This document shows positions 5,645-63,623 of a stretch of DNA of 64,000 nucleotides, one piece after another. The DNA lies in assembly GCF_030013595.1 (NCBI RefSeq), contig NZ_CP122768.1, one strand, 5' to 3'. The position numbers were made by a program, and so were the translations under genes. The DNA comes from Escherichia coli (GTDB lineage: Bacteria > Pseudomonadota > Gammaproteobacteria > Enterobacterales > Enterobacteriaceae). Below the pieces are notes generated by a model, which ran no database searches, was not told where the DNA came from, and saw only the letters and a list, made by a program, of their open reading frames with translations. Every line of letters begins with the position of its first letter. Position 1 is the stretch's first letter.

Positions 5645-6937
5645 TCACAGATACGGCGACCAGGCAGGGAATTTGACCTGTCCATCAGTTGCCGGAAGAC
5701 GCGCTTTGAAACGCCCATCTGTAGAAACCAAATTCAGCACGGATCCCATCCCCTGAGAAGAGCTGTAGATTACCATAGTGCCGTTAGGTGCCAGACTTGG
5801 CGTTTCATCCAGGAACGTGGACGACAGAACTTGTACGCCTCCCGTTGCCAGATCTTGTTTGGCAATGTGCTGCTGCCCACCATTGGAGCTGACCATTACC
5901 ATAAATTTACCGTCGCTGCTGACATCCGCATCCTGGTTCTGCGAACCTTCCCAGGTAATACGTTGTGGCGCACCGCCGTTGATATTCACTTTATAAACCT
6001 GTGGACGACCGGCCTGGTCAGAAGTAAATGCCAGGTTCTGGCTGTCCGGGAACCAGGTCGGTTCGGTATTGTTACTGCGACCATCCGTCACCTGGCGGAT
6101 CTGACCAGAAGCCAAATCCATTACGTATAGGTTCAGGCTACCAGTTTTCGACAAGGCGAATGCCAGTTTGCTGCCGTCTGGCGAGAATGCAGGTGCACCG
6201 TTGTGACGCGGGAATGAAGCCACCTGACGTACAGCGCCATTTGCCAGCGTTTGGATGACCAGCGCGGAACGACCGCTTTCGAAGGTCACATAAGCCAGTT
6301 TAGAACCGTCTGGTGACCACGCCGGAGACATCAGCGGCTGTGGTGAACGGTGAACGACAAATTGGTTGTAACCGTCATAGTCAGATACGCGCAGTTCATA
6401 CGGGAACTGACCGCCGTTGGTCTGAACAACGTAGGCAATACGGGTACGGAACGCACCTTTAATGCCGGTCAGTTTTTCAAACACTTCATCACTGGCGGTA
6501 TGACCAGCATAACGCAGCCACTGCTTGTTCACTTTGTACGAGTTCTGAGCAAGTACAGTACCCGGTGCGCCGCCAGTGTCAACAAGTTGATAAGCAACAT
6601 TGTAAGAACCATCCGGATTCGGAGTGACCTGACCGACAACTACAGCGTCAATACCCAGCGCGGACCATGCAGCTGGTTGTACTTCCTGCGCACTACCCGG
6701 CTGCTGTGGCAGACGAGCGCGATCTAACGGATTAAATTTACCGCTGTTACGCAAGTCGGCAGCAACGATGCCGCCAATATCTTCAGGTGCCGCACCAGGG
6801 CCCGCCCACTGGAAAGGAACAACTCCAATAGGACGACCGGAATCTACACCGCTGTCGATCACAATGCGGACTTCAGCATGCAGAACTGATGCCCACAGTA
6901 TGAGAAAACCAAATGCTACTCGTAATGCCTGCTTCAT
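5645..6937 (-). CDS. tolB: Tol-Pal system periplasmic beta-propeller protein TolB
   Basis: 430-aa ORF with signal peptide and repeated WD-like propeller motifs. Confidence 0.95.
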
Positions 6938-7069
6938 CATATCTCCCTTATCTGGACCGATGGCCCACGATAATTTAGCAGAATGTTAACAAACTAAAAT
7001 ACACAAAACTACCAGAACCCCGTGGCAACCGGTGCCTGATGTTGACCGTCGGAACAGTCAACATCGCGA

Positions 7070-8335
7070 TTACGGTTTGAAGTCCAATGGCGCGTTTTTG
7101 AACACTTCATATACTGCCTGGCTTGGTGGTTTCGGGATCTTCGCAAGTTTAGCTGCTGCCAACGCAGCCTGACAAAGTGCGGGATCGCCACCTTCAGGTT
7201 TGATATCCAGTAACATACCATCGGGTGCCAGTTTTATGCGCAGCGTACAGGTTTTGCCTGCATAGGACGATGCGTCATAGAACTTACTTTCGATAGCAGA
7301 TTTAATCTGCCCGGCATAGTTATTGATATCGGCCCCTGATGCGCCATTGTTTTTAGTATTACCACTCCCGGCTGGCGAAGCATTGTTCCCTTTCGCCCCT
7401 CCCCCCGTTTTCGGTGCATTCTTACCAGAGCTTAGCTCACCGAAAATATCATCTGCCTCTGCGGCAGCTTTTGCTGCAGCGGCTTTTTCAGCTGCTGCTT
7501 TTGCCGCTGCCGCTTTTTTGTCTGCGGCGGCTTTTTCTGCCGCTGCTTTCTTATCAGCAGCTGCCTTTTCAGCAGCCGCTTTTTCTGCTGCTTTTTTGTC
7601 GGCTGCAGCTTTCTCTGCTGCCGCTTTCTTATCAGCTGCAGCCTTTTCAGCAGCCGCTTTCTTATCAGCTTCTGCCTTGGCTTTTTCAGCAGCTTCAGTT
7701 GCCGCTTTCTTTCTTGCTTCAGCTGCAGCTGCTTCTGCCGCTTCCGCTTTCTTCTTCAGTGCCGCCGCGGCTGCCTCGGCTTTTTTCTGCGCTTCGGCTG
7801 CGGCTTTGGCGGCTTCTGCTTCTGCTTTTTTCTTCGCGTCTGCAGCCGCTTTCTTCGCAGCTTCTTCCGCAGCTTTAGCATCCGCTTCGGCCTTCGCTTT
7901 AGCATCTGCCGCCGCTTTCGCTGCCGCTTCTTCCGCTTGCTTCTGCTTTAACTCGGCCTGTTTTGCGGCTTCTTCAGCCTGCTTTTTCTGTTCCTGAGCA
8001 GCTAACCGCTCTTTCTCAAGTTGCTTCAGGCGTTCCTGTTCAGCCGCTTGTTTCTCACGCAGTTCTTCAGCAGCCTGCTGTTCCTTCATCTTGCGCTGCT
8101 CATCAGAACGCTTCGCGCTTGATTCCTGGCTTTGCATGCGTTTGTACTGCTCAACTACCGCACCTGAATCAACCATGACAGCGTCGATGGATGAACCACC
8201 GCCGCCTCCGGCTGAAGCTTCTATATTCTCATCGAACGAACTCCAGATCAGCGCCGCAAATAAGATGACATGCAGCACTGCTGAAATAATTATCGCCCGC
8301 TTGAGCTTGTCGTTTTGTTCGGTTGCCTTTGACAC
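7070..8335 (-). CDS. tolA: Tol-Pal system protein TolA
   Basis: 421 aa; N-terminal TM anchor, long Ala/Lys/Glu-rich helical domain II encoded by repetitive DNA (about 7430-7990), C-terminal domain III. Confidence 0.95.
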   Translation of the reverse strand: MSKATEQNDKLKRAIIISAVLHVILFAALIWSSFDENIEASAGGGGGSSIDAVMVDSGAVVEQYKRMQSQESSAKRSDEQRKMKEQQAAEELREKQAAEQERLKQLEKERLAAQEQKKQAEEAAKQAELKQKQAEEAAAKAAADAKAKAEADAKAAEEAAKKAAADAKKKAEAEAAKAAAEAQKKAEAAAAALKKKAEAAEAAAAEARKKAATEAAEKAKAEADKKAAAEKAAADKKAAAEKAAADKKAAEKAAAEKAAADKKAAAEKAAADKKAAAAKAAAEKAAAAKAAAEADDIFGELSSGKNAPKTGGGAKGNNASPAGSGNTKNNGASGADINNYAGQIKSAIESKFYDASSYAGKTCTLRIKLAPDGMLLDIKPEGGDPALCQAALAAAKLAKIPKPPSQAVYEVFKNAPLDFKP

Positions 8336-8399
8336 TCTCGGTTTCCAAAAACTGTTCGCCTGTTACCCGCTCTCTTTCAAGCAAGGGAAACGCAGATGT

Positions 8400-8828
8400 T
8401 TAGATAGGCTGCGTCATTAAACCAACCGATTTCACACCCGCACTATGTAACAAGTTCAGTGCTTTAATTATTTCATCGTAAGGCACATCTTTTGCGCCAC
8501 CGATCAGAAAGACCGTTTTCGGGTTGGCCTTGAAACGGCTGGACACTTCCGCCACCACCTGCTCTGGTGGTAAACGCTCCAGGCGATCTTTCTCAACCAC
8601 CACGGTGTACTGACCAATACCAGACACTTCAACAATCACTGGCGGATTATCGTTACTGCTCACCGCCTGTGATTCAGTAGCGTCTGGCAGATCGACCTCC
8701 ACGCTCTGGGTGATGATGGGCGCTGTCGCCATAAAGATCAGCAACAGCACCAGCAGTACGTCCAGCAACGGTACAATGTTGATTTCGGACTTGAGATCGC
8801 GACGACCTCGTCCACGCGCTCTGGCCAT
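8400..8828 (-). CDS. tolR: Tol-Pal system protein TolR
   Basis: 142 aa, ExbD/TolR family, single N-terminal TM. Confidence 0.95.
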   Translation of the reverse strand: MARARGRGRRDLKSEINIVPLLDVLLVLLLIFMATAPIITQSVEVDLPDATESQAVSSNDNPPVIVEVSGIGQYTVVVEKDRLERLPPEQVVAEVSSRFKANPKTVFLIGGAKDVPYDEIIKALNLLHSAGVKSVGLMTQPI

Positions 8829-8831
8829 GGC

Positions 8832-9925
<1,094 letters not shown>

Positions 9926-10023
9926 TTTACATCCCGGTAATGCAACAAAAGTTAGAGCTTTTAAACGCTGCTACTATACGCGCGCGATTGAGGTTTGGGA
10001 ATGAGGGCAAGTTAAGGGAGCGT

Positions 10024-10060
10024 AAAAATTTATGGGCCTGTAGCGGCCCATAATTTTTTA
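10024..10060. terminator. bidirectional intrinsic terminator (TATGGGCC-loop-GGCCCATA with T runs)
   Basis: hairpin immediately 3' of ybgE on the minus strand. Confidence 0.6.
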
Positions 10061-10074
10061 AAGAGAATTCTGAG

Positions 10075-10368
10075 TTAAAAGAAGAAGAAAATCAGCCCGA
10101 CAATGAGAACAATATCGGCAAGCAATGGGCAAAAAATCCCTTGCCAAAGAACCTTCTGCGGACGAAAGCCCACGCCGTGAATCACACCAGCACAGACGGC
10201 CCACATCAGCAATAAACCATGCCAGATTTCCAGTTCACTGGTCTTCGCGGCGAAACGTGATGGGTCCCAAAACATACATCCGGCTAACAGAAGCGCCATC
10301 ACGAAGGAAAGCGCCCGCAGGGGGCGCTTGTCCATTACCGCATACAAGGTTGCGATAATCTTACTCAT
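10075..10368 (-). CDS. ybgE: cyd operon small membrane protein YbgE
   Basis: 97-aa hydrophobic ORF downstream of cydX. Confidence 0.9.
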   Translation of the reverse strand: MSKIIATLYAVMDKRPLRALSFVMALLLAGCMFWDPSRFAAKTSELEIWHGLLLMWAVCAGVIHGVGFRPQKVLWQGIFCPLLADIVLIVGLIFFFF

Positions 10369-10481
10369 CAGATGTCTTCTTGACCGGCTTTGCCTGATTC
10401 GACGTGCTCAAGCGCCAGCGCGGTGATTACCCCAAACGAACAGGCAAGAAGCGTTCCCAGAATCCATGCGAAATACCACAT
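10368..10481 (-). CDS. cydX: cytochrome bd-I accessory subunit CydX (37 aa)
   Basis: translated by hand from the minus strand: MWYFAWILGTLLACSFGVITALALEHVESGKAGQEDI; not in the ORF track (too short); TGATG overlap with ybgE. Confidence 0.9.
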   Translation of the reverse strand: MWYFAWILGTLLACSFGVITALALEHVESGKAGQEDI

Positions 10482-10495
10482 TTTTAGCTCCTTAC

Positions 10496-11635
10496 TTAGT
10501 ACAGAGAGTGGGTGTTACGTTCAATATCTTCTTTGGTGATACGACCGAACATTTTCCAGTAACACCAGGCGGTGTAGAGCAGAATGATCGGTACCAGAAC
10601 CACCGCAACCCAAGTCATGACGTTAAGTGTCAGCTGGCTGGAAGTTGCATCCCACATTGTCAGACTTGCGTTCATCATGGTGCTGGACGGCATCACAAAC
10701 GGGAACATTGCGATACCGGCAGTCAGGATGATGCAGGCCAGCGTCAGGGAGGAGAACACAAACGCCCACGCGGCTTTATCCATACGTGCAGTCAGGATGG
10801 TCAGCAGCGGCAGAACCACACCCAGTGCCGGAATAGCCCACAGAATTGGCGTGTTGTTGAAGTTAACCAGCCATGCGCCAGCTTCACGAACCACTTCTTT
10901 ATTCAGCGGGTTAGAGGCTGCGTAATGGTCCATTGTCGATTTCACGACATAACCATCGATACCGTACATCACCCATACGCCAGCCAGTGCGAAACAGACC
11001 AGTGTCACCAGTGCCGCCACCTGAGCCGTTGCACGGGTACGCAGGTGCAGTTCGCCCACGGTACGCATTTGCAGATAGGTTGCGCCCTGAGTAATGATCA
11101 TCCCTACGCTCACCACGCCTGCCAGCAGGCCGAACGGGTTAAGCAGCTGGAAGAAGTTACCGGTGTAGTACAGACGCAGATATTCATCAACGTTGAACGG
11201 TACGCCCTGCAACAGGTTACCGAACGCTACACCAATCACCAACGGCGGAACGAAGCTACCAATGAAGATGCCCCAGTCCCACATGTTACGCCAGCGGGTT
11301 TCTTCAATCTTGGAGCGGTAGTCAAAACCGACCGGACGGAAGAACAAAGACGCCAGCACGAGGATCATCGCCACATAGAAGCCGGAGAACGCAGCGGCAT
11401 AGACCATCGGCCAGGCAGCAAAGAGTGCGCCGCCTGCGGTGATCAGCCAAACCTGGTTACCGTCCCAGTGTGGTGCGATGGAGTTAATCATAATTCGACG
11501 CTCGGTGTCGTTACGACCGAGGAAACGGGTGAGCATGCCCACCCCCATGTCGAAACCGTCAGTGACTGCAAAACCAATCAGCAGAACGCCAACCAGCAGC
11601 CACCAGATAAAACGCAATACTTCATAATCGATCAT
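10496..11635 (-). CDS. cydB: cytochrome bd-I ubiquinol oxidase subunit II
   Basis: 379-aa polytopic ORF matching CydB. Confidence 0.96.
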   Translation of the reverse strand: MIDYEVLRFIWWLLVGVLLIGFAVTDGFDMGVGMLTRFLGRNDTERRIMINSIAPHWDGNQVWLITAGGALFAAWPMVYAAAFSGFYVAMILVLASLFFRPVGFDYRSKIEETRWRNMWDWGIFIGSFVPPLVIGVAFGNLLQGVPFNVDEYLRLYYTGNFFQLLNPFGLLAGVVSVGMIITQGATYLQMRTVGELHLRTRATAQVAALVTLVCFALAGVWVMYGIDGYVVKSTMDHYAASNPLNKEVVREAGAWLVNFNNTPILWAIPALGVVLPLLTILTARMDKAAWAFVFSSLTLACIILTAGIAMFPFVMPSSTMMNASLTMWDATSSQLTLNVMTWVAVVLVPIILLYTAWCYWKMFGRITKEDIERNTHSLY

Positions 11636-11650
11636 TTGACGACTCCTGTC

Positions 11651-13219
11651 TTAGCGTGCCGGCTGAGTAGTCGTGGAAGACTGCTCAAAGTGATAGCGAC
11701 CGGTTTTCAGGCTGCTTGGGCCGAGGCGTGCAAACTTGAACATTAAGAACAATTCTGCCACCAGGAACAGGGTATACAGGCCGCAAATCAGCACCATTGA
11801 GAAGATGAGATCGCCTGCGGTCAGTGACGAGTTCGCCACAGCTGTCGGCAGCACTTCACCGATAGCCCACGGTTGGCGGCCATATTCAGCCACAAACCAG
11901 CCCGCTTCTACAGCAATCCACGGCAGCGGAATACCGTACAGCGCGGCGCGCAGCAGCCATTTTTTCTCGCCAATGCGGTTGCGGATGACACTCCAGAAAG
12001 AGAGCGCGATGATTGCCAGCAGCAGGAAGCCACACGCCACCATGATACGGAACGCGAAGTACAGCGGCGCTACACGCGGAATGGAGTCTTTGGTTGCCTG
12101 TTGAATCTGCGCTTCAGTCGCATCAGCCACGTTTGGCGTATAGCGTTTCAGCAGCAGACCGTAACCGAGGTCTTTCTTCATGCTATTGAACTGGTCACGA
12201 ACCGCCTGGTCGGTAGAACCAGAACGCAGTTGCTCGAGCAGAGAGTACGCCTTCATCCCGTTACGAATGCGTTCTTCATGCTGCACCATCAGTTCTTTCA
12301 GGCCGATAACTGGAGTATCCACGGAACGCGTTGCAATGATACCCAGCGCGTAAGGGATCTGGATCGCAAATTTGTTCGTCTCCTCTTCCTGATCAGGAAT
12401 GCCGAACAGAGTAAAGGCAGCAGGCGCAGGTTGCGTTTCCCACTCGGCTTCAATAGCAGCCAGTTTGGTTTTCTGCACGTCGCCCATTTCGTAACCAGAT
12501 TCATCACCCAGAACAATAACAGACAGAACGGCAGCCATACCGAAGCTGGCAGCGATAGCAAAGGAGCGTTTAGCGAAGGCGAAGTCACGACCTTTCAGCA
12601 TATACCATGCGCTGATACCGAGGATGAACATCGCGCCAGTCACATAACCAGACGCTACAGTGTGAACGAATTTCACCTGAGCAACCGGGTTAAGCACCAG
12701 CTCGGAGAAGCTCACCATCTCCATACGCATAGTTTCAAAGTTGAAATCAGACGCGATTGGGTTTTGCATCCAGCCGTTCGCAACCAGAATCCACAGTGCG
12801 GACAGGTTTGAACCGAGCGCCACCAGCCAGGTGACACACATATGCTGAACTTTACCCAGACGATCCCAACCGAAGAAGAACAGACCTACAAAGGTGGATT
12901 CGAGGAAGAAGGCCATTAGACCTTCGATTGCCAGCGGCGCACCGAAGATATCCCCTACATAGTGGGAATAGTAAGACCAGTTAGTCCCGAACTGGAACTC
13001 CATGGTCAGACCGGTAGCCACACCCAGAGCGAAGTTGATACCAAACAACTTGCCCCAGAACTTGGTCATATCTTTATAAATCTGTTTGCCGGAAAGGACG
13101 TAGACCGTTTCCATAATGGCCAGCAGGAACGCCATACCGAGCGTCAGTGGCACAAAAAGGAAGTGGTACATCGCGGTCAAGGCAAACTGTAAGCGCGACA
13201 GTTCGACTATATCTAACAT
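11651..13219 (-). CDS. cydA: cytochrome bd-I ubiquinol oxidase subunit I
   Basis: 522 aa from the second Met ([12 protein letters not shown]...); Q-loop region present. Confidence 0.96.
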
Positions 13220-13570: not shown

Positions 13571-14024
13571 AATCAACCAAATATGTTAATTATGTATAAA
13601 CCATAGATCATTGGTAATTTTATTGTTAATTTATTGTGAAATATTTATGCAACACAATTATTACAATGAAAAAGTATAGATAAAAAACCAGTGTTTTATT
13701 TAACAGAACCGCCCTATCCACTTTTTATAATACCAATTGATTAGAGTAGCCAATTTGTTGCTATTTTACATAACATATTTTTATCAAAGTTAATTGATTG
13801 TTGCCTTTATGAGCACCGGCCGTAAGCCCGTTATGTTATTGTTTCATTAGTAATAATCACTTAAATGTATCGATGAAACAGGTATGACTTAGCGGGAGTG
13901 ATTGTTTCTGAGTGAACAGAGACCACTTTCGCCTGATAAATGAAAAATGAGCGATTTTTGCAAGTTAGTTTTTCTATAGCCGAGTACGCTCAGCGCCTCG
14001 CTTGATTACAATGAGGTTGCTGCT

Positions 14025-14969
14025 ATGAGTCCTGATAATATCAGTTCTGCTGTCAATCGCTTCTCAGGTTGGCCATCTAATGATCCTCTAAAAACAGATA
14101 AAGAATCAATGACATCACCCATGACTGTGCAGGTAATAAAGATGATTGCCGCCATCCTTGACCCACATCGGATAGTCGTTGGAATCGATACACTTTATAC
14201 AACGCAGCGCGAAACATTTACCTCAGAGAGTCAACAGCTCATTGAATCAGCATTGCAAACACTTCATGTGATGAATTTAAATAACCTGGAAACAAATCTC
14301 GATGAGGAAGGTCACTATCTGGCTTTTGGATATAACGTTGACACTCCTGACAGAATAACCGTTTCTGCTTATAATGAAAAAAAGCCTGGCTGCTATGGCC
14401 AATGTCTTTTAATACAGGATGACGAAACAGACTTATTTAACCTGATAAAAGTTAAAATTTTTGAAGCCAGGCATAATTATGTCGCTCAATTGATGAGCGA
14501 TCCGGAATTTATGTTCAAATTTAGTTATAGCGCTCAACAAAATAGATTAGAACCTCATCTTCTGGTTCCCACTTATTTCCCTCTAAAAACAAACGAACCG
14601 GTTACGCAAGAGGATGTACTGTTACTTTATCGTTTCTTTAAAATGGATGGTGATTTTAATATATTAACATCAGATGAATACATGAGTATCATGACACCTC
14701 TAATGAAGTGTGAGCGTAGCATCCACGACCACAACAGGTATGTGACGGGCAAAGATCCCCTTCTTCTGGACTATCCTCCTTCTGGTAACCAGATATATTT
14801 CCATATTTTTCCTGACGAATCAGCAACACTAGTCCTTTATTTTTCAAACAATGACATTGAATGTTTCGTCTTTGAAAGAGATATTCCGAGCCAGTATCGC
14901 TTTTTCAAAATGTTTACCAATCTGGCACTGGTTATTGATCAGTTAACCGATGCCAATCAAATACTTTAA
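14025..14969 (+). CDS. hypothetical protein, 314 aa, low GC, no recognisable domain
   Basis: clean ORF with a GAGG Shine-Dalgarno 8 nt upstream; polar Ser/Pro-rich N-terminus; no signal peptide or TM segment; AT-rich codon usage unlike flanking core genes. Confidence 0.7.
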   Translation: MSPDNISSAVNRFSGWPSNDPLKTDKESMTSPMTVQVIKMIAAILDPHRIVVGIDTLYTTQRETFTSESQQLIESALQTLHVMNLNNLETNLDEEGHYLAFGYNVDTPDRITVSAYNEKKPGCYGQCLLIQDDETDLFNLIKVKIFEARHNYVAQLMSDPEFMFKFSYSAQQNRLEPHLLVPTYFPLKTNEPVTQEDVLLLYRFFKMDGDFNILTSDEYMSIMTPLMKCERSIHDHNRYVTGKDPLLLDYPPSGNQIYFHIFPDESATLVLYFSNNDIECFVFERDIPSQYRFFKMFTNLALVIDQLTDANQIL

Positions 14970-52834: not shown

Positions 52835-54248
52835 CTCCTTTCCTCGCTTCTTCGTACGCTGCCAGCGTTCGCAGCCTTGCCTCTTTATGATCAACTATCG
52901 GTTGCGGATAATCCAGCGTCACACCTGCTTTCTGCGCCCATTTCCACGGCTCATGCACCACTTTCCCTGGCACATCGCGCAGTTCCGGTAGCCACCGGCG
53001 GATAAACTCGCCTTCGCGGTCAAATTTCTCGCCCTGGGTTGTCGGGTTAAAAATACGAAAATACGGCGCTGCATCGGTTCCGGTTGAAGCGGCCCACTGC
53101 CAGCCACCGTTATTGGCTGCCAAATCACCATCAATCAGCTGCGACATGAAATATCGCTCACCTTCGCGCCAGTCGATCAATAAATCTTTCACCAAAAAAC
53201 TGGCTGTAATCATCCGTAGCCGGTTATGCATCCAGCCAGTGGTGTTAAGCTGACGCATGGCAGCATCAACAATCGGGTATCCCGTTTTGCCTTCCTGCCA
53301 GGCCTGTAAATGTGCGGGATTGCTCTGCCACTGCACACGATCCGTCCAGGCAATAAACGGACAATGTTTACACAACGAGGGGTAATACGTCATCAGATGA
53401 CGGTAGAACTCGCGCCAGATCAGCTCACTAAGCCAGACACTACCGGCCCCACCGTCCAGCGCCTGCGGCTGTTCCGCCAACAAGCGATGCAAACACTGGC
53501 GAGGCGATAACCCGCCCGTTGCCAGGCTGGCGGACAAACGACTGGTGCCTTCCACTGCCGGAAAATCTCGTTGTTGCTCATATTCTCCGGCACCGTTCTG
53601 GCAAAACTGGCGTAATTGCGCAATCGCAGCTTTTTCTTCCACCGGGAAATGCGCAGTATCGAGAGGCTGACGAGGATAATTCAGCGTAATGGATGGCGCG
53701 GGATCTATCGATCCACTACTACGTACTTTTGGCGCAGCGACGCACTCCGGCATCCCTTCCCGCAGTCGTTTCAGCCAGGCGTTTTTAAATGGTGTAAAGA
53801 CTTTGTACATCTCATGATTGCCGGTCATCACCGCCCCCGGCGGCAGGATCACGCTGTCATCAAATCCTTCACACACCACGTTACGCAGCGCTCTTTCAAC
53901 TTCCACATCCCGCGCCCGCTCATTCACCTCATACTGATAGTTATAAAACAGATGGGTAACACGATTTTCCGCGCACACCTGTTTAACTATTTCGACGCTG
54001 GCGGCAAAGTCATCCACTTCATGAAACAGCAAAGGAATGCCTTTTTCCGCCAGCGCGATTTGTAGCCCGTTCAGTTGTGCATTGATAAATTCAGCCTGAC
54101 GCGGCGACATATTATGCGCCGCCCACTGGCGTGGGGTAGCGATATACAACGCCAGCACGCGCGCAGACGAATTGCGGCAGGCGGCAGCCAGCGCGAGATT
54201 ATCGTGCTGACGCAAATCCTGGCGAAACCAGACCAGATGGGTAGTCAT
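52830..54248 (-). CDS. phr: deoxyribodipyrimidine photolyase
   Basis: 472 aa with photolyase N-terminal and FAD-binding domains. Confidence 0.96.
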   Translation of the reverse strand: MTTHLVWFRQDLRQHDNLALAAACRNSSARVLALYIATPRQWAAHNMSPRQAEFINAQLNGLQIALAEKGIPLLFHEVDDFAASVEIVKQVCAENRVTHLFYNYQYEVNERARDVEVERALRNVVCEGFDDSVILPPGAVMTGNHEMYKVFTPFKNAWLKRLREGMPECVAAPKVRSSGSIDPAPSITLNYPRQPLDTAHFPVEEKAAIAQLRQFCQNGAGEYEQQRDFPAVEGTSRLSASLATGGLSPRQCLHRLLAEQPQALDGGAGSVWLSELIWREFYRHLMTYYPSLCKHCPFIAWTDRVQWQSNPAHLQAWQEGKTGYPIVDAAMRQLNTTGWMHNRLRMITASFLVKDLLIDWREGERYFMSQLIDGDLAANNGGWQWAASTGTDAAPYFRIFNPTTQGEKFDREGEFIRRWLPELRDVPGKVVHEPWKWAQKAGVTLDYPQPIVDHKEARLRTLAAYEEARKGA

Positions 54249-54754
54249 AAAACTCCTGAATGGCGCAAGTTAATCACACGCGGCCAAAGTTCGAAATAAC
54301 GCTGCCCTGAAAGCCAGGCGTCAGGATAAAGCGCCATATAGTGTTTGATACGCATCAGCGGCGCAAGAAGTGGTTGCTCGCCACGGCGATAACTGTCGAT
54401 AAGCGCAGCCAGCTGCTGGCGTTCTGTGGAATCAATATGAGGGCGAAAATAACCCTGAACGTGCATCAAAACATTGGTGTGGTCACGTCGGTTGGCGGGG
54501 TGAGAAAGCAAAACAACTACGCGTTGGCGGTACTGGTTGTAATAGTCATCCAGATTTTGCCACTGGTGAATATCAGCCACGAACGGGCCAAGTTTGCGGT
54601 ATTCCGGCTGGGAATGAGCCAGAAAGACGAGTTTATAGCGGCTGTGATAATCGAGAAGCGCCCCGCGCGTTAAGCCATGTTCTTTCAGTCGATGTAACTC
54701 ATGAAGCGCGAAGATACGGATTAGAGTGCTGTCATCAAATCGTTGCTGATTCAT
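54245..54754 (-). CDS. ybgA: DUF1722 protein YbgA
   Basis: 169 aa, overlaps phr start. Confidence 0.9.
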   Translation of the reverse strand: MNQQRFDDSTLIRIFALHELHRLKEHGLTRGALLDYHSRYKLVFLAHSQPEYRKLGPFVADIHQWQNLDDYYNQYRQRVVVLLSHPANRRDHTNVLMHVQGYFRPHIDSTERQQLAALIDSYRRGEQPLLAPLMRIKHYMALYPDAWLSGQRYFELWPRVINLRHSGVL

Positions 54755-54882
54755 TACTGCTCCTGAACGGTTTACAGGAGTAAGTGTAGACGTTGGTAAA
54801 TGATGTTTGTGAAGTTAATCCGCTAGCAGGGCAAGATTACGAAAGCGCGCTCCCCGCAAGCAACTCATCAAGGTAGTTAATC

Positions 54883-55176
54883 ATGGCTGAACACAATATT
54901 ACGCCAGAAGTCATCATTTCCAAAACACAGCGCCGCTGTACCGTGGGTTATCTGCCCAACCGCAGCGACACGCCGGTGATCAAAATCAGCGCCAAATGGC
55001 TGAGAGAAGCGGGATTTGAGATCGGCACTGGCGTTACCGTGAAGATCTCGGAAGGTTGCCTGATCCTGCTTGCGGATAACAACGAAGTACAGGAACTGCG
55101 CAGGGAACTGTATCAGGTTAAACAGGCTGTTAAGGGGATGCGTGACGGGATGTTTAGTGTGCTGAACGAGAGTTAA
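54883..55176 (+). CDS. SymE-family (SOS-induced type I toxin-like, AbrB/SpoVT fold) protein
   Basis: 97 aa; RRCTVGY...PVIKISAKWLREAGFEIGTGVTVKISEGCLIL aligns with K-12 SymE (RHVTVGY...[32 protein letters not shown]). Confidence 0.75.
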   Translation: MAEHNITPEVIISKTQRRCTVGYLPNRSDTPVIKISAKWLREAGFEIGTGVTVKISEGCLILLADNNEVQELRRELYQVKQAVKGMRDGMFSVLNES

Positions 55177-55181
55177 ATAAT

Positions 55182-55213
55182 AAAAAAGCCGGGAGATTTA
55201 ATGTCTACCCGGC
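55182..55213. terminator. bidirectional terminator between SymE-like and Rhs immunity genes
   Basis: A6 + GCCGGG...CCCGGC hairpin; reads as hairpin + T6 on the minus strand. Confidence 0.5.
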
Positions 55214-55243
55214 CCACACATTATAATGTGTAAAACATATATT

Positions 55244-55684
55244 CTATTTATTTAAGTATTTTTTAGAGATTCTTAACCACCATGCTTTACCAGAATTAAA
55301 ATTTGAAATTAATACTTTCCCTTTTTTCCTTTTTAAAACATCAAGAATTACAGCATCAGATTTTTTTAATATCCCATCTTCTTGAGGAACACCTAACTCT
55401 ATCAATATATTAATTGAGTCAAATAGATGACCTATCTTTTCATATTCTTCATACAATAAATTACTTTCATTATTCGATATCTGAATTAAGTAATTAAATG
55501 TAACCCCCAAAATATTAGGAAATTTAGAGCTATTGACACTCGATATAAACTCCTGAACAATAGCTCTGTTTTTTAATTTCCCGGCACATAATAAAGCATA
55601 AATATTTCCAGCCAAACGTTCGATATCATGCGGATATCTATATCCTTTAGCAATTATTGCCTTAATTTTCTGTTCAGGAGTCAT
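55244..55684 (-). CDS. putative Rhs immunity protein (146 aa, low GC)
   Basis: AT-rich ORF starting 3 bp after the Rhs stop on the same strand; typical toxin-immunity arrangement. Confidence 0.7.
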   Translation of the reverse strand: MTPEQKIKAIIAKGYRYPHDIERLAGNIYALLCAGKLKNRAIVQEFISSVNSSKFPNILGVTFNYLIQISNNESNLLYEEYEKIGHLFDSINILIELGVPQEDGILKKSDAVILDVLKRKKGKVLISNFNSGKAWWLRISKKYLNK

Positions 55685-55686
55685 TA

Positions 55687-58600
55687 TCAGTACCTCCCGT
55701 TAGGAACAGAAAATCCAGGCAAACGCCTTAGATTTTCCCACGATTCAGGGAAGTGAGTTAAGATCACTGGTGTTTTCCCTATCTGACTTGTTGCAGTAAA
55801 CAAACCTGTTTCAGGATCATAATAGCCTACTCTAGGTTTATTCGTATACCTATCTCTATAAGTAAATTTCCTGCCATTTTGTATCGTGGTTCTTGCACTA
55901 ATATCATATTCTTTTACTGAATTTGCACCGACTTGTGAGCCATGTTTTTCAAAGTGATCTCTTAGGCCCGGCCCATCAACATTTTGTCGTGCTTTATTCC
56001 ATTTTGCATTTTTAGCCGTACCACAAAATAACCCAAGCGGATCGATCCAGCTTAACGGATTTGGCACATAAGCATAGAGGTTCAGCCCACCGTTTAATCC
56101 TATCGGGTCCGTTACCATGAACCGCCCGACATCCGGATCATAGTACCTGTGCAGATTGTAATGCAGCCCCGTTTCCCTGTCGAGGTACTGTCCCTGGTAG
56201 CGCAGGTTCTGCTCCACCCCGCCGTGGTCCTTCTCCTGTATCGTGTTACCCCAGACCTGATACCCCGTCTCCCACACGATTTTCCCGTCGCTGTCCGTCA
56301 TCTCTTCCGGCGCGCCGTTCACATCCGTGTGAAAATACAGTATCCGGTTCGGGCCCTCTTTGCCCGCCTTATCCACCCGCGCCAGCGGTTCATAACTCCC
56401 CGGGTCCCTGTAGATGTACAGGCTGTCTGTTCCCTCCGGCCTGCTCTCCTGCGCCAGCCGCATTCCGTCCCATAAAAATTTTGTCCGGTTGTACGGTTTA
56501 CCGTCAGGACTGATGTGCTGTTTTTCCGTCCGCCTCCCCAGCGCATCGTACACATACCGGTACGTCCCCCGCGCTGTCGTCACTTCCACCATCCGGTGTT
56601 CCGCATCATAACGGTAACTCTGCGTGCCGCTCCGCCCCTCCTTTTCCACCGCACGGCCAAATTCGTCGTAACGGTAGTGCACACCACGGTAAGACATCAG
56701 CCGGTTGAACGGCACCACGCTGTTTTCTGCCGTGGCCCTTTCCCCCGCGCGCCGCGCCAGCAGGTTTCCCGCCGCGTCGTACTGCCAGCTCGCCAGATAC
56801 CCCTCATCCTCCGAGCGGCACGCCGTGATGCGCCCCGTGGGGTCGTAGAAGTAATCCGTTTCCCCCCGCCGGCTGTGCCGCGTCTTCAGCAGTTCATCCT
56901 CGCCACTGTAGCTGTACTGCCGGTCCGTGAACGTCTCCGGTACCCCCCCGCGCATCCCGCTGTATGTCTCCCTGCGCTTCAGCCGCCCGCCGGGGTCGTA
57001 AAGCTGCCGCGTGCTCAGTCGCCCCTGGCTTCTGAGCACTTCACGGTGCAGGGCGTCACGTGTGAACTCGCTGATGACCTCCCGGTCCAGATTTATCTGC
57101 TGGAGATGGCCGCTGCCGTAGTACAGATGACGCTGCGTTCTGCCGTCCGGAAAGGTGGTGGCTGTCCGGTTGCTGAGTTCATCGTACTGATGGGTCAGGA
57201 CGCCCTGCGCCGTCTCCTCAGTCAGCATCCGCCCCAGTCTGTCGTAACTGAAGCGGATAATCTCCGGTGCGTCTGTTTCCCCGGCATCCGACCGTCGGCG
57301 GCGGATTTCCAGTAGCTGGTCTGCCGCATCATGGACGTATTCCGTACGGCTATCGGCTGTCTCCTTTGCCGTAAGCCGGCCCGCCGCATCACGTGCCAGC
57401 CGATGGCGGATTTCACCGCCCCGGTCCCCGGTGAACACCACTTCCGTGACCGCGTTCAGCGCGTTGTAGCGGTACGTCTGGCGGCAGCCGTCCGGATTTA
57501 TCTGCTCCGCCAGACGGTCCAGCACATCATGGCGGAACCGGTAGCTTTCTCCGTTCTCGTTTGTCAGCGTGACCAGACGCCCGTAAGCATCGTACCCGAA
57601 TGCCGTCCTGCGCCCCGTCGCGTCCGTCCGGCTGCGCACCCGGCCCTGCCCGTCCCGCTGCCAGCGCGTTATCCTCCCCATCGGGCTGGTGTACTTCACC
57701 AGCCTGCCCGCCGCGTCCGACTGGTAATTCACCGTGCGGCCGTCCGCCAGTATCACCTCCGTCAGGTGGCCGCTGTCGTCATACCCGTAGCGCGTGCTGT
57801 GGCTCTGCGCGTCTGTCATCCGTATCAGCCGCGTGCGTTCGTCGTAGAACCAGGCCGTCTGCGAGCCGGAACAGTCCGTGTGCCGCATGAGCTGCCCGTC
57901 TTCGTTCCACTGAAGGTATTTATTCCCCCCGCGCGCATCGGTTATCTGCACCACCTGGCCGTGGCGGTCATACTGATACCGGGTGTTCTGCTGCAGCGGG
58001 TCGGTCACCGCAAGAAGATTGCCGCGTTCATCGTACTCACAGCACCAGCTGTTCCCCGCCGCGTCCACCTCCGTTTCCGGCTGGTGCCACACCGGGTGCC
58101 ACTGTGTCTGTGCCACCCGCCCCAGCGGGTCGTGCGTCTCCGTGATATGCCCCTGCCGGTCATACACATAGCGCCATTTGCCGCCCTGCGCATCGGTCAT
58201 TCCCAGTAACAGCCGTTCTTCGTCGCTCCAGCGGAACGTCGTCACCTGCCCGGCTTCGTCCTGGTACGCCGTCACCTGGTTCTGCGCGTCCCACTGATGA
58301 TAACGCGTGCGCCCCAGCCCGTCCGTCACGCACAGCCTGCGTGACGCCAGGCTCCACGCCAGCCGGTACTGTTCACCGCTGTCCGTGTGGTGCCCCGTCA
58401 CCCGCCACGCTGCGTCATCCGGGCCTTCATACCAGCCCCACTGGTAATAATACCCTTCGCCGCCCGGCTGGCGGTGCAGGGTCATGCAGTGGTTTTCGTC
58501 GTAAGCAAACTCGCGCAGCAGGTGTCCCGTGCTGTCGTACACGCCGTTCAGGTCGCCGGCCTCGTCATAGCGGTAACGACGCAGCAGTAAAGGAGCCGTC

Positions 58601-60339
58601 TCAGGGAAATGCTGATAAATCTGTGTCACCCGCCGGGGATGCGCCGCCAGTTCATAATGCAGACGGATGCACGGACGCTGCTGTTCACCGCTGATTTGCG
58701 TGATGCGCCCCAGCTCGTCGTAGTACAGATTCAGACAGTTGCTGTTGCGGTCGCCCAGCATTTTCAGCCGCTGGCGCTGCGGGTGATGCGGGTCGGCCTC
58801 AAACAGAAAAAACTGCCCGTCATCGCTGCTGATAAGCCAGTGCCCCTGCTCACCCCGCCTTACCGCCAGTCCTTCGCCGGGGCTGTAAAACCCGCTCCCC
58901 GGCAGCACGGCCTCCATATCCAGGCGTCGTCCCATGCCCGACACAAAGGTCATACAGTTTTCGTCAGCAGTACCCGGCGTGCGCTCGAGGCTGACTTCAT
59001 ACATCACGCTCCAGCCCTGCCCGAACATCCCTTCCGTGCGGTCGTCACGACTGCTGTACACGCGCTGCCAGTCCAGCGGAAAGTGGCCCGGCAGACTGAA
59101 ATCGAAGTCATCGTCATCCGCCAGATATTTGGCTCCGGTGGCGGCATTGACCGGATGCGGAAGGGCACTGATGGCCTTCTGCGTCATCACCCCCATCCCG
59201 ACACTGGCAGCAAAACAGGCGATTTTAGAAAGCATTTTGCCCGGGCGAAGAAACATCAGCGCCACAGTTGCCACCAGGGTTATCTGCGACCTGCCGCTTC
59301 TGATATCCCTGACCACCAGTAACGGACCGCCAATGCGGACATCCGGTGACACAAACGCCCCGTTCCCCGGCTCATTCACCACCCAGGCCTCGCAGGTGCA
59401 GCGTGCCCCGCTGCGTGCCGCCGGCTGGCTGTTGATACGCACATCCCGCGCGCCTTCCGCGATATATTCCGCTGCGGGCGGTTCATCATCGCCTTTGAAC
59501 AGATTACTGATGCTGCCAATAACCGCATTCACTCCCTGAAAGGCGGTTTCCAGCATACCGCCCGGACTCAGCAGGTTAAGGGCCGTTCCCAGAGGGTCAT
59601 CCAGAAAGGCGGCTTTTTTTTGTGCGAGAAACTGCGTCAGTGAGGAGGGATGTTTATGGCAGTCGATTTTATCGTCAGGGGTCGGGGTGGAGCCCGGGGC
59701 CGCACTGGCCACGGTGGGCTGCCATAGTTCCGACACAAAATGTGTCACGCCATCCACCATTTCAGAACGCCCTTCTTCCGTACTGAGCTGGTCATGCAGC
59801 GCCCGGGACATCAGCACAGGCCCTGTCACCGGGTTAACCGCCAGGGCTATGGCCCCCGCCATTTCCAGATATTCCCCGGCCACATCCCGGAACGTTCTGG
59901 CGTCCTCCTGACGCTGCGCTTCTTCCTGTTCCGCCTTCGCCTGTGCCTCCTGCGCCTCAATGTCCTGCCGCGATGCCGCAGTCGCCGCTGCCCGCGCGGC
60001 AGGTTTGCTGTTGATCCATGTGTCGCCAGAGCCGGTGAGGATGTAACCTTCAATCTGAGGCGGGAAAAGCCAGTTCGCCAGTTGCTCACTTTCCCTACTG
60101 ATTCGGTCATTCCAGCCCTGATACGACATAAATACCGCTGTTGCTATACCGATCGCTAAAATGGTTGAGCAGCCCAGCGTTGCCACTTCAACTCCGCCCA
60201 GCGCCGCCATGGTTCCGACAACCAGAACATCCACCAGGGCTGTGGCGGCAACCTCTACAACTGCCCCCAGCACATCTGCCATAAACGACGTATGCAGCAG
60301 GGCATCACCCTGCCTTGCCGCCCAGAATGCCTCTTCCAT
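55687..60339 (-). CDS. Rhs-family polymorphic toxin: prePAAR motif, TM segments, split PAAR, RHS/YD-repeat shell, C-terminal toxin domain
   Basis: 1550 aa; [10 protein letters not shown] prePAAR motif at residues 7-16; PAAR signatures; [9 protein letters not shown] T6SS-effector N-domain motif; many YD repeats; core ends [27 protein letters not shown] followed by a 113-aa AT-rich tip; positionally equivalent to K-12 rhsC. Confidence 0.9.
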   Translation of the reverse strand: [1550 protein letters not shown]

Positions 60340-60357
60340 GTCCCGTTCCCTGTGTGA

Positions 60358-60567
60358 TTAATTCGTCCCGGCTTCCTGCCGCATCCTGAAGCGCAGATTC
60401 TTTTTAATTTCAGCCCAGCGCGTCATATCTGCCGGGGTCAGCGGTGTGGTTCTGGCGTAGGTGAAGGCCATCATGACCCGTTCACCCGGCAATACAAATG
60501 CCACCTGACACTGGTACACCTGCTCGTTACCCCGGAGAAACTGGCTCTGTATTTGCAAACCGCCTCA
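60358..60567 (-). pseudogene. truncated Eag/DUF1795-like T6SS effector chaperone remnant (C-terminal about 68 codons only)
   Basis: reading frame open only from an in-frame TGA at 60565-60567; no ATG (track uses TTG); C-terminal pattern resembles EagT6-type chaperones; ends 18 bp before the Rhs start. Confidence 0.4.
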
Positions 60568-61341
60568 TAGAGATAATATTCCGTCATAATAGAAGTCGTC
60601 CTTTTTAATAAATGAATTATTTATTGACAGGTTCTGTTTTTTAATCATGAATGTAATGTCTATCACCGCTTTACAGCACTCTTTATCTTTCAAGCCGTAA
60701 TCACTAATAACATTAAGCAATTACCCATATTTACAATGACCGGAACTGATATGCCGTTATGTATTTAACAATCCCAACATATTCACCATACCAATAAAAT
60801 CACGAGTAACAAACACGCTACCGCCTCCATATAAAAAATGGACAGCTTATAAAATTGCATCTTGCATAGAAAGGGCTGAGATATCGAGTGTATTTTAATT
60901 ATCAACTATAAATGTTGAATATTTTCATTAACAGAAACACATCTTATCCCATTAGATATGTTAACAATCAATTACTCTTAACATATCACTAAAGTATATA
61001 TTACTCTCTTTACTATCTACTTTTATTGCGGTAGCGATACAAATAGCAAAATTCGGAATTTATTTAGATGCAGGAATTAGAAAAAGGGATGGCGGCTTTC
61101 TCACCTTACCCTGAAGTTTCAGGAAAGTGTGTAAGGAAGGATGCAACCTAACTGGAGATTTCTGAGGATCTAGTTGCTTAGAGCGACAATGAAGGTGAAC
61201 GCATCCAGAGTAGTCCTATGAAAGGATACTATTGAAAATTGATGCTAAAACAGTGATTAAATGAACAACACCATGGAACCCGTTGATTCAAAACGCCTAA
61301 ACCAGCCCCCTGATACGAGGCTGGCTTAAACGCGCAGGCAA

Positions 61342-61548
61342 TCAGTAAAAATCACCAGTTGCCTTTTCGGCCTGATCCATCCACACCGGTTTCTCGCTGG
61401 TTTTCGACCAGACGCGGTGCAGGTAGCTGTAAAAGCGGGCGCGGTCTTTCCAGAAAAGCATGAAAGGCAGCGCCAGAACGCCCGCTGCAACCGCATAAGT
61501 ACGGCGTATAAAGATAAGCCATGCAGGATATTCTCTGTAGAGTTCCAT
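61342..61548 (-). CDS. ybfA: DUF2517 small protein YbfA
   Basis: 68 aa, matches remembered YbfA; sits between the rhs locus and kdp as in K-12. Confidence 0.85.
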
Positions 61549-61761
61549 ACTTTTCTCCCCCTTTTGTATCTATCCGGTGAATGGCACCGGAAAAATGAAT
61601 TTGTTTATCTGATGAAAATAGTACCGCCTTTTGTGTAATTTTACTACTCATCCGACCACTTATTTTTGCTTATTGATGGTTTATTTACATTCACACTGTA
61701 ATTAAGTTACACAAAAGTTAAATTAATACTAACCATCAGTTAAATCATGGCTTTTGCCATT

Positions 61762-61778
61762 TTTATACTTTTTTTACA
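61762..61778 (+). promoter_or_regulatory. KdpE operator (TTTATA-N5-TTTACA direct repeats) in the kdpFABC promoter
   Basis: CATTTTTATACTTTTTTTACACCCC about 85 bp upstream of kdpF; KdpE site recalled from the literature. Confidence 0.55.
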
Positions 61779-61860
61779 CCCCGCCCGCAGATTTTTGCGA
61801 AATCTTTGCAGCCAGAATTCTACTCTTCCGGTATCACTTTTAGGCCACTGGAGGTGCACT

Positions 61861-61950
61861 GTGAGTGCAGGCGTGATAGCCGGCGTGTTGCTGGTGTTTT
61901 TATTACTGGGTTATCTGGTTTATGCCCTGATCAATGCGGAGGCGTTCTGA
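61861..61950 (+). CDS. kdpF: K+-transporting ATPase subunit F (29 aa, GTG start)
   Basis: hand-translated [29 protein letters not shown]; stop overlaps the kdpA ATG (TGATG). Confidence 0.85.
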
Positions 61951-63623
61951 TGGCTGCGCAAGGGTTCTTACTGATTGCCACGTTTTTACTGGTGTTAATG
62001 GTGCTGGCGCGTCCTTTAGGCAGCGGGCTGGCGCGGCTGATTAACGACATACCTCTTCCCGGTACAGCGGGCGTTGAACGTATACTCTTTCGTTTACCTG
62101 GCGTCTCTGACAGTGAGATGAACTGGAAGCAGTATCTCTCTGCCATTCTCGGCCTGAACATGCTGGGGCTGGCGGTGCTGTTTTTTATGTTGCTCGGTCA
62201 GCACTATCTGCCGCTTAATCCACAGCAGTTGCCAGGGCTGTCGTGGGATCTGGCGCTGAATACCGCCGTCAGCTTTGTCACCAATACCAACTGGCAATCT
62301 TATAGCGGTGAAACCACGTTGAGCTATTTCAGCCAGATGGCGGGCTTAACGGTACAAAACTTTCTTTCTGCCGCCAGCGGGATTGCGGTGATTTTTGCCC
62401 TCATTCGTGCGTTTACCCGCCAGAGCATGAGCACACTCGGGAATGTCTGGGTCGATCTGTTACGTATCACGTTATGGGTGCTAGTCCCTGTGGCGTTGTT
62501 GATCGCACTGTTTTTTATTCAACAAGGTGCACTGCAAAACTTTCTGCCCTATCAGGCGGTGAATACCGTTGAAGGAGCGAAACAGCTGTTACCCATGGGT
62601 CCGGTGGCTTCTCAGGAAGCGATAAAGATGCTCGGCACTAACGGCGGTGGCTTCTTTAATGCCAACTCGTCGCATCCGTTTGAAAACCCAACCGCACTGA
62701 CCAACTTCGTGCAGATGCTGGCGATCTTCTTGATCCCAACGGCACTGTGCTTTGCCTTTGGCGAAGTGGCGGGCGATCGCCGTCAGGGGCGCATGTTGCT
62801 GTGGGCGATGTCAGTGATTTTTGTCATCTGCGTAGGCGTGGTGATGTGGGCAGAAGTTCAGGGTAATCCTCATCTGCTGGCGCTGGGTGCGGACAGCAGC
62901 ATCAATATGGAAGGTAAAGAGAGCCGTTTCGGCGTGCTGGTCAGTAGCCTGTTTGCGGTCGTGACTACGGCGGCTTCCTGTGGCGCGGTGATTGCGATGC
63001 ATGATTCGTTTACCGCTCTCGGTGGCATGGTGCCGATGTGGCTGATGCAAATTGGTGAAGTGGTATTCGGCGGTGTCGGTTCTGGTCTTTACGGCATGAT
63101 GCTGTTTGTTCTGCTGGCGGTGTTTATTGCCGGGCTGATGATTGGTCGTACACCGGAATATCTGGGTAAAAAAATCGACGTACGTGAGATGAAACTGACC
63201 GCGCTGGCGATTCTGGTCACCCCGACGCTGGTGCTGATGGGCGCGGCGCTGGCGATGATGACCGACGCCGGACGTAGCGCCATGCTCAACCCTGGCCCGC
63301 ATGGTTTTAGCGAAATGCTGTACGCCGTGTCGTCCGCCGCTAACAACAACGGCAGCGCCTTTGCCGGATTAAGCACCAACTCTCCATTCTGGAACTGTTT
63401 GCTGGCGTTCTGCATGTTTGTCGGTCGCTTCGGGGTAATTATCCCGGTGATGGCAATTGCCGGTTCGTTGGTGAGTAAAAAGAGCCAACCCGCCAGCTCC
63501 GGCACGCTGCCAACGCACGGCCCGCTGTTTGTTGGCCTGTTAATCGGCACCGTGTTGCTGGTTGGCGCACTGACCTTTATCCCTGCCCTGGCGCTTGGTC
63601 CGGTGGCGGAATATCTCTCCTGA
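61950..63623 (+). CDS. kdpA: K+-transporting ATPase subunit A
   Basis: 557 aa from [16 protein letters not shown]; the track ORF is extended upstream in frame. Confidence 0.96.

Follow-up and report, generated by a model that had tools for sequence, protein, structure and literature searches.

How might a type VI secretion system (T6SS) effector be delivered when the chaperone gene beside it is dead? The question is raised by a 64-kb stretch of Escherichia coli DNA (contig NZ_CP122768.1), hereafter called the window, in which an Rhs effector gene lies directly downstream of a broken eag gene. The rhs, toxin and immunity genes are intact while the cis chaperone gene is dead, and no T6SS genes are present in the window, as the first-pass annotation of this DNA had already noted. 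Rhs effectors of this type carry an N-terminal hydrophobic region, which is the part bound by the Eag chaperone in homologous systems (PMC7773334, PMC8636562). The explanation that we favour, and consider rather probable, is that the module is a secondary (auxiliary) vgrG-eagR-rhs copy at the ybfA (rhsC) site that lost its eag by one ancestral deletion, and that its Rhs would be served in trans from a second module at ansP and fired by T6SS-1. Coordinates are those of the window; features of the window lie on the minus strand unless stated.

The eag gene upstream of rhs carries an internal deletion

The rhs gene (55687..60339) is a full-length open reading frame (ORF) of 1550 codons with no internal stops. 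What is left of eag upstream of it falls into two overlapping pieces. The 5' remnant (60474..60587) retains the native ATG (60587-60585), together with the ribosome-binding region and about 10 codons (MTEYYLYEA), beyond which the frame shifts; counted from the ATG it closes with a TGA after 38 codons, and 135 nt separate this end from the downstream rhs. The 3' remnant (60358..60564) consists of 68 codons and a TAA; its stop precedes the rhs ATG by 18 nt, a spacing equal to that at intact loci. The first-pass annotation had taken this piece, of about 68 codons behind an in-frame stop, for the C-terminal part of a DUF1795 chaperone, and this was borne out. The in-frame TGA is at 60565-60567, and a Pfam search placed the frame 60361-60564 in DcrB/DUF1795 (PF08786; E = 1.8e-5), where it covers positions 77-126 of the 127 in the model. 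From residue 4 onwards its translation (65 residues) is identical to the C terminus of an intact 150-residue Eag. NCBIfam gave no match on the remnant, which was detected by Pfam only. A complete DUF1795 domain within one ORF with a start codon is absent from 60358-60587; the native ATG is in the other frame.

It had also been proposed that some 770 bp of AT-rich, non-coding sequence stand in place of the rest of the gene. That part of the reading is incorrect. The AT-rich spacer between ybfA and eag (60588..61341, approximately 750 bp of 30-40% GC by composition profile) is native: it aligns at 89% identity to the ybfA-eag spacer of strain C10, in which the 453-nt eag of this site is unbroken and lies 783 nt downstream of ybfA. 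A 150-residue eag product is encoded intact at the ybfA site in both C10 and strain G3X16-2; in the window the cis eag has been inactivated. From ATG to stop the distance is 230 nt in the window versus 453 nt in intact eag. Because the spacer is homologous, the start and about 10 codons are kept, homology resumes at 60557 and the gene is shorter by the difference between 230 and 453 nt, the lesion is an internal deletion of codons ~11-85. The net loss is 223 bp, out of frame, in an otherwise conserved locus. The junction lies at 60554..60566, and intact copies begin to match at 60557 or 60554. Replacement of eag by foreign AT-rich DNA was ruled out by the homology of the spacer to intact loci and by the retained eag start. 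The cis eag is a pseudogene, already flagged as such in the RefSeq/PGAP annotation ('DcrB-related protein, incomplete, missing N-terminus'), and represents ordinary pseudogenisation within a known kind of system.

To see how widespread the deletion is, we used a 201-nt query across the junction on 5,426 complete E. coli genomes and counted matches at ≥ 80% coverage. The query was covered in 99 genomes. One or two of these were two-piece matches to intact alleles, which leaves approximately 98 carriers (≈ 2%); the eag family was found in some form in 212 of the 5,426 genomes, and about 110 genomes have intact copies only. Since about 98 independent complete assemblies have the same junction, the deletion is not an assembly error. 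Its distribution indicates a single, shared and old allele. Five inspected strains combine this allele with no fewer than four distinct C-terminal toxin tips, and a full-length rhs ORF (~1550 codons) was found at five of the six inspected deletion-allele loci.

A sister module at ansP may supply Eag and VgrG

The nearest complete genome, NZ_CM149870.1 (strain HCP5S3_I2, from pig faeces), is ≈ 99.92% identical to the window and colinear with it throughout. The two are not identical: the last 10.8 kb differ by 5 mismatches and an indel of 3 nt, and the Rhs has 1549 residues against 1550 in the window. Our statements on the genome outside the 64 kb rest on this close relative, not on the source strain. 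At ansP, ≈ 877 kb away, it carries a module consisting of two small ORFs, vgrG, eag (WP_000141612.1, 150 residues), rhs (1548 residues), an immunity gene and symE. The T6SS-1 cluster, which has a vgrG-eag-rhs set of its own, is at aspV, ≈ 600 kb away. Thus, an Eag whose cis copy is a pseudogene in the window has an intact counterpart in a genome that is 99.9% identical. In a spread sample of 27 deletion-allele genomes, 23 had a second eag copy. The Eag of the main T6SS-1 cluster, WP_054496238.1, is an unlikely substitute: BLASTP finds no resemblance between it and the ansP-type Eag, and the prePAAR and transmembrane region of its cognate Rhs are different as well.

The two rhs genes of NZ_CM149870.1 differ by ≈ 0.3% over a core of about 4 kb. 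The likeness between the ansP and ybfA loci extends over everything between the deletion junction and the second DPxGL motif of rhs, bar one discrete patch. When the window Rhs is compared with the sister Rhs, residues 1-27 are identical and residues 93-450 nearly so. The patch is a transmembrane cassette, defined by hydropathy and alignments, which in the window occupies residues 28-90 (60070..60258) and is presumably the Eag-binding region. It occurs as two alleles: the window has allele A and the ansP copy of the nearest genome has allele B. Over residues 28-92 the alleles have 24 of 65 residues in common; residues 1-27 are identical and those from 93 on nearly so. At ≥ 99% nucleotide identity, allele A was present in 81 genomes, some of which have it at ansP, some at ybfA and a few at both loci. 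The ansP and ybfA loci evidently exchange sequence.

Strain VCSW7 is informative on whether the ansP Eag can work with allele A. Here, the gene for an Eag identical to WP_000141612.1 immediately precedes a full-length rhs at ansP. The product of that rhs equals the window Rhs over its first 100 residues, and in the first 450 there is one difference, at residue 319. In cis, the same Eag is therefore the partner of allele A in VCSW7 and of allele B in HCP5S3_I2. Because it is found beside both alleles, it could serve the window Rhs in trans; this is the best available evidence for the proposal. The suggestion in the first-pass annotation that the chaperone might be encoded elsewhere gains support from this pairing and from the intact WP_000141612.1 and vgrG genes at ansP of the nearest genome.

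The two loci of strain 104 have decayed in opposite ways. In its ansP module vgrG and eag have been kept, and a frameshift at the first DPxGL motif has cost the rhs there (allele A) its toxin. Its ybfA module has the eag deletion and a full-length rhs (allele B), which is the only toxin-bearing copy of the two. With the toxin gone at ansP and an entire rhs at ybfA, use of one locus by the other is implied. Decay in strain 104 is thus reciprocal between ansP and ybfA. Strains SCU-171, KKo009 and 2009C-3133 also have an intact Eag beside a frameshifted allele-A rhs at ansP and the eag deletion at ybfA. Strains 104 and KKo009 were each checked at both loci, and in both of them ansP keeps vgrG and eag while ybfA has the eag deletion.

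In all four strains the ansP rhs frameshift falls right after the first DPxGL, which puts the toxin out of frame and leaves two small ORFs downstream, and vgrG and eag are intact at each of these loci. Of the four, strain 104 is the one whose ybfA rhs was inspected. The frameshifted gene of strain 104 is at 6924-11881 of its locus excerpt (L008); the like loci are those of SCU-171 (L009), KKo009 (L017) and 2009C-3133 (L018).

From these comparisons, chaperoning in trans and loading by the ansP-locus Eag and VgrG is the most likely mechanism. The Rhs would be stabilised by the Eag of the paralogous vgrG-eag-rhs module at ansP. It would then be mounted on the VgrG of that module through its prePAAR/PAAR region, which matches that of the sister Rhs, and the T6SS-1 apparatus, whose genes are at aspV, would fire the loaded Rhs. 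The near-identity of eag remnant and rhs core to their sister copy would be maintained by gene conversion from one locus to the other, which would also shuffle the dimorphic transmembrane cassette. The eag remnant of 66-68 codons would itself be functionless. Remote Eag proteins have precedents in Pseudomonas protegens, where EagT2 (PFL_6099) serves Tne2, and in Shigella, where SF0266 has the chaperone SF3490 (PMC7773334). In E. coli, delivery of PAAR-Rhs effectors by T6SS-1 is reported to depend on EagR (Ma et al. 2017, as cited in PMC7216683 and bioRxiv 10.1101/2024.03.05.583533).

A more far-reaching version is that the two modules, ~0.8 Mb apart, form one split system, in which the ansP Eag and VgrG serve two Rhs proteins and a dimorphic cassette is shuffled by gene conversion under an essentially invariant Eag. 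We put this forward tentatively and think it rather doubtful. If it were true, either Eag tolerates very divergent transmembrane helices or selection maintains the dimorphism, for example selection on entry into the target membrane.

Architecture of the Rhs effector

The first-pass annotation described the protein as a prePAAR-type Rhs effector with hydrophobic segments, the PVNxxxGxK motif and PAAR signatures split by an insert of about 200 residues. These features were confirmed, with an insert of approximately 170 residues. The prePAAR motif is at residues 7-16 (60292..60321) and was found as a regular-expression match to AARxxDxxxH; this motif and the class I prePAAR effectors were defined by Ahmad et al. 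2020 (PMC7773334). By hydropathy scan only, residues 18-73 were the sole region with 19-residue Kyte-Doolittle windows of ≥ 1.6. A motif scan located PAAR tetrapeptides at residues 113 and 306 and PVNAATGAK at residue 396, and Pfam DUF6531 covers residues 395-473.

The Pfam PAAR_motif model matched at residues 291-321 (E = 1.4e-4) and, weakly, at residues 97-118 (E = 1.8). Because of these two matches, we regard the PAAR domain (59377..60051) as split by about 170 residues. The NCBIfam T6SS_PAAR_dom model scored 18.5 bits on the Rhs, far under its cut-off of 124; the PAAR domain is both split and divergent. Among solved structures, the Rhs proteins 7Q97 and 7PQ5 are homologues, and the N-terminal 450 residues of the window Rhs align with them across the insert. 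The match of 7Q97 to this region had an E-value of 1e-50, and the PAAR insert of 7Q97 is shorter. Since the alignment with 7Q97 and 7PQ5 crosses the insert, the split PAAR domain is not peculiar to the window Rhs.

NCBIfam identified RHS_core, YD_repeat_2x (E = 3e-64) and Rhs_assc_core (E = 1.7e-28). Two DPxGL motifs, DPIGL at residue 1411 and DPLGL at residue 1433, are 17 residues apart and are followed by a tip of 113 residues. This C-terminal toxin domain (residues 1438-1550, 55690..56028) begins after the second DPxGL, where homology to the sister locus ends; it had no match in Pfam or NCBIfam. An AT-rich ORF of 146 codons that begins 3 nt past the rhs stop (55244..55684) is the candidate immunity gene. 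It is annotated as a hypothetical protein and had no NCBIfam match. The window Rhs thus combines a prePAAR motif, a single hydrophobic region, PAAR and an Rhs/YD cage with the toxin after DPxGL, and these features place it among the class I prePAAR effectors.

Alternative explanations

Several observations weigh against supply of Eag in trans. For the source strain a sister eag is presumed from a 99.9% relative of the window, and in that genome the intact Eag is the neighbour of allele B, with which the window cassette shares 24 of 65 residues; Eag chaperones can be effector-specific (PMC7773334). Residue 319 (59383-59385) is a tryptophan in the window Rhs and an arginine in nine of nine compared homologues, the 99.9% relative included (CTCEAWVV versus CTCEARVV). 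This replacement, R319W, falls within the second (C-terminal) half of PAAR, and the docking of the Rhs on VgrG could be affected by it. The frameshifted eag frame, ending 135 nt upstream of rhs, could lower rhs expression. The T6SS-1 cluster of NZ_CM149870.1 has a stop at codon 36 of hcp (Q36*), and its tagK is split by insertion sequence (IS) elements of the IS66 and IS3 types (locus excerpt L011, 29389-29874 and 38209-43206). The T6SS-1 of this strain may be inactive, or these may be errors of the assembly. If the lesions are real, no Rhs of the strain is delivered; an error is possible because the assembly has many other 'frameshifted' and 'internal stop' calls. Finally, four of the 27 sampled deletion-allele genomes were without a second eag. 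Three carriers of this kind were inspected: two have an intact rhs and one, 2014C-3338, a frameshifted rhs. Since intact rhs persists in two carriers without a second eag, intactness of rhs alone is no proof of function, and a sample of three is too small to show dependence.

These points lead to the rival explanation that survives best, which is that the locus is decaying and the effector is undeliverable. According to this explanation, the Rhs would be unstable or unexported without its cis chaperone, the T6SS might be inactive, and the intact ORF would reflect recent inactivation and homogenising conversion. Rhs1 of Photorhabdus laumondii is unstable without EagR (PMC8636562), and therefore the window effector would probably be lost without supply in trans. 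The hcp and tagK lesions of the nearest genome and the R319W replacement, which is private to the window Rhs, are in line with an undeliverable effector, as is 2014C-3338, in which the deletion allele, the lack of a second eag and a frameshifted rhs coincide. The ≈ 99.7% identity of the rhs core to its sister fits conversion and does not require selection. Nevertheless, simple decay does not readily account for one deletion occurring with four or more toxin tips, nor for full-length rhs ORFs at most of the inspected loci. Most carriers have an intact paralogous eag and vgrG, and of the two rhs copies in strain 104 that at ybfA alone has a toxin. We regard decay as unlikely, if still a serious contender beside trans supply from ansP.

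A T6SS-independent role for the Rhs/immunity pair seems improbable. The pair could be a toxin-antitoxin-like module, as reported for Salmonella Rhs elements (PMC7043789), or a silent reservoir of cores and tips for recombination with the ansP rhs, for which the clear inter-locus exchange of the transmembrane cassette and the homogenisation of the core would speak. However, the complete delivery N terminus (prePAAR, transmembrane region and PAAR) has been kept and is identical to that of Eag-paired Rhs copies. A reservoir needs no intact start or N terminus, and typical orphan rhs fragments are without them.

Hardly credible is the last alternative, that eag looks truncated through an error of assembly or sequencing, or that a TTG-initiated ORF of 66 codons in the remnant frame (60358-60558) is a working mini-chaperone. 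A sequencing frameshift hiding an intact eag is effectively refuted, as 223 bp rather than one base are missing at a junction common to ~98 independent complete assemblies. The mini-chaperone would lack DUF1795 model positions 1-76 and over half of the region (Eag residues 32-124) covered by the SciW alignment, and conversion from the sister copy accounts for the high identity of the remnant.

Comparison with known systems

The closest relatives of the window module are the VgrG(O1)-EagR-PAAR-Rhs islands of T6SS-1 in the same species (Ma et al. 2017, as cited in PMC7216683 and bioRxiv 10.1101/2024.03.05.583533), with which it shares the eag-rhs-immunity order and the Rhs layout. The ansP sister locus of the nearest genome is a complete example of such an island. 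Unlike these, the window module is without vgrG (except for a possible remnant of ~25 codons), has an eag pseudogene and occupies the ybfA/rhsC site.

The AARxxDxxxH motif, the single N-terminal transmembrane region, PAAR and the Rhs cage are likewise found in SciW-Rhs1 of Salmonella Typhimurium and EagR1-RhsA of P. protegens (PMC7773334, PMC8765631). In contrast to those systems, the window chaperone is broken, the PAAR insert is longer (~170 residues) and the protein has 1550 residues, against ≈ 1200 quoted for the class. The match of the intact paralogous Eag to SciW in the PDB (6XRB/6XRR) was marginal (E ≈ 2.5e-3), stood beside chance matches to complement receptor and serves for orientation only. 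As in EagT2 (PFL_6099)-Tne2 and SF0266-SF3490 (PMC7773334), a prePAAR effector would be served by a non-adjacent Eag, to which in this case paralogy and genomic pairing point. For those two systems no broken cis copy is described, whereas the window has one.

The rhsC element of E. coli K-12 occupies the same place in the chromosome, with ybfA and ybgA on either side. In a spread sample of the 4,892 matching E. coli genomes, the part in common with the window is mostly limited to the last ~63 nt of ybfA. The spacer, eag remnant and prePAAR N terminus of the window belong to an rhs lineage other than K-12 rhsC.

A prePAAR Rhs without a working neighbour chaperone should be checked against paralogous vgrG-eag modules genome-wide before it is scored as dead. 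Two side observations, a deletion allele present in ~2% of complete E. coli genomes with several toxin tips and a dimorphic cassette swapped between two loci under one Eag, could guide work on Eag specificity and on the exchange of Rhs parts. The shared deletion, the inter-locus homogenisation and the cassette dimorphism under one invariant Eag are population-genomic observations that we find modestly interesting; the deletion allele and the dimorphism leave the current understanding of T6SS effector loading unchanged.

Genomic setting and minor features

The module is inserted in the E. coli chromosome between ybfA/kdp and ybgA/phr, which is the classical rhsC insertion site. The gene order is dtpD-phr-ybgA, a symE-like gene, the immunity-like ORF, rhs, the eag remnant, the AT-rich spacer, ybfA and kdpFAB, and the window is colinear with the zitB...dtpD-phr-ybgA...kdpA/kdpB region of the nearest genome. 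The upstream edge of the rhs island is marked by the core-genome gene ybfA (61342..61548), an ORF of 68 codons whose matching records are named YbfA family protein.

A vgrG ORF upstream of eag is absent from the window. With residues 641-665 of the VgrG of strain M1 as the query, tblastn gave a weak hit (E = 0.036) at 60634..60708, a possible remnant of the last ~25 codons of vgrG; apart from this, no VgrG similarity was found by tblastn. Against the ansP module (3' end of vgrG and spacer) the nucleotide identity is ≈ 75%. Because this weak trace lies upstream of the eag start, the ybfA module may derive from a vgrG-eag-rhs ancestor, and a breakpoint near the vgrG 3' end is suggested. The trace, just upstream of the eag start, is visible at the intact C10 locus as well. 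That the AT-rich spacer as a whole is a decayed vgrG was ruled out, the similarity being weak and limited to the last ~25 codons.

Rfam gave no match at the gathering threshold over 54000-62000, spacer included. In the same interval promoter-like sites were fewer than in shuffled sequence and no terminator-like sites were found; the spacer has one promoter-like site (60616-60644), which is below the number expected by chance. A noncoding RNA or regulatory element in 54000-62000 was rejected on the basis of these scans.

The module is closed by a SymE-family gene on the plus strand (54883..55176), which matched NCBIfam SymE with E = 3.6e-12 and 46 bits, below the curated cut-off of 132; Rfam found no SymR-like RNA. 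A SymE-family gene stands at or near the distal end of most inspected rhs modules, at the ybfA, ansP and T6SS-1 loci of several strains, and is usually on the opposite strand. Further copies are at 13926-14255 of locus excerpt L006, 4679-4912 of L011, 17292-17534 of L003 and 17254-17583 of L004.

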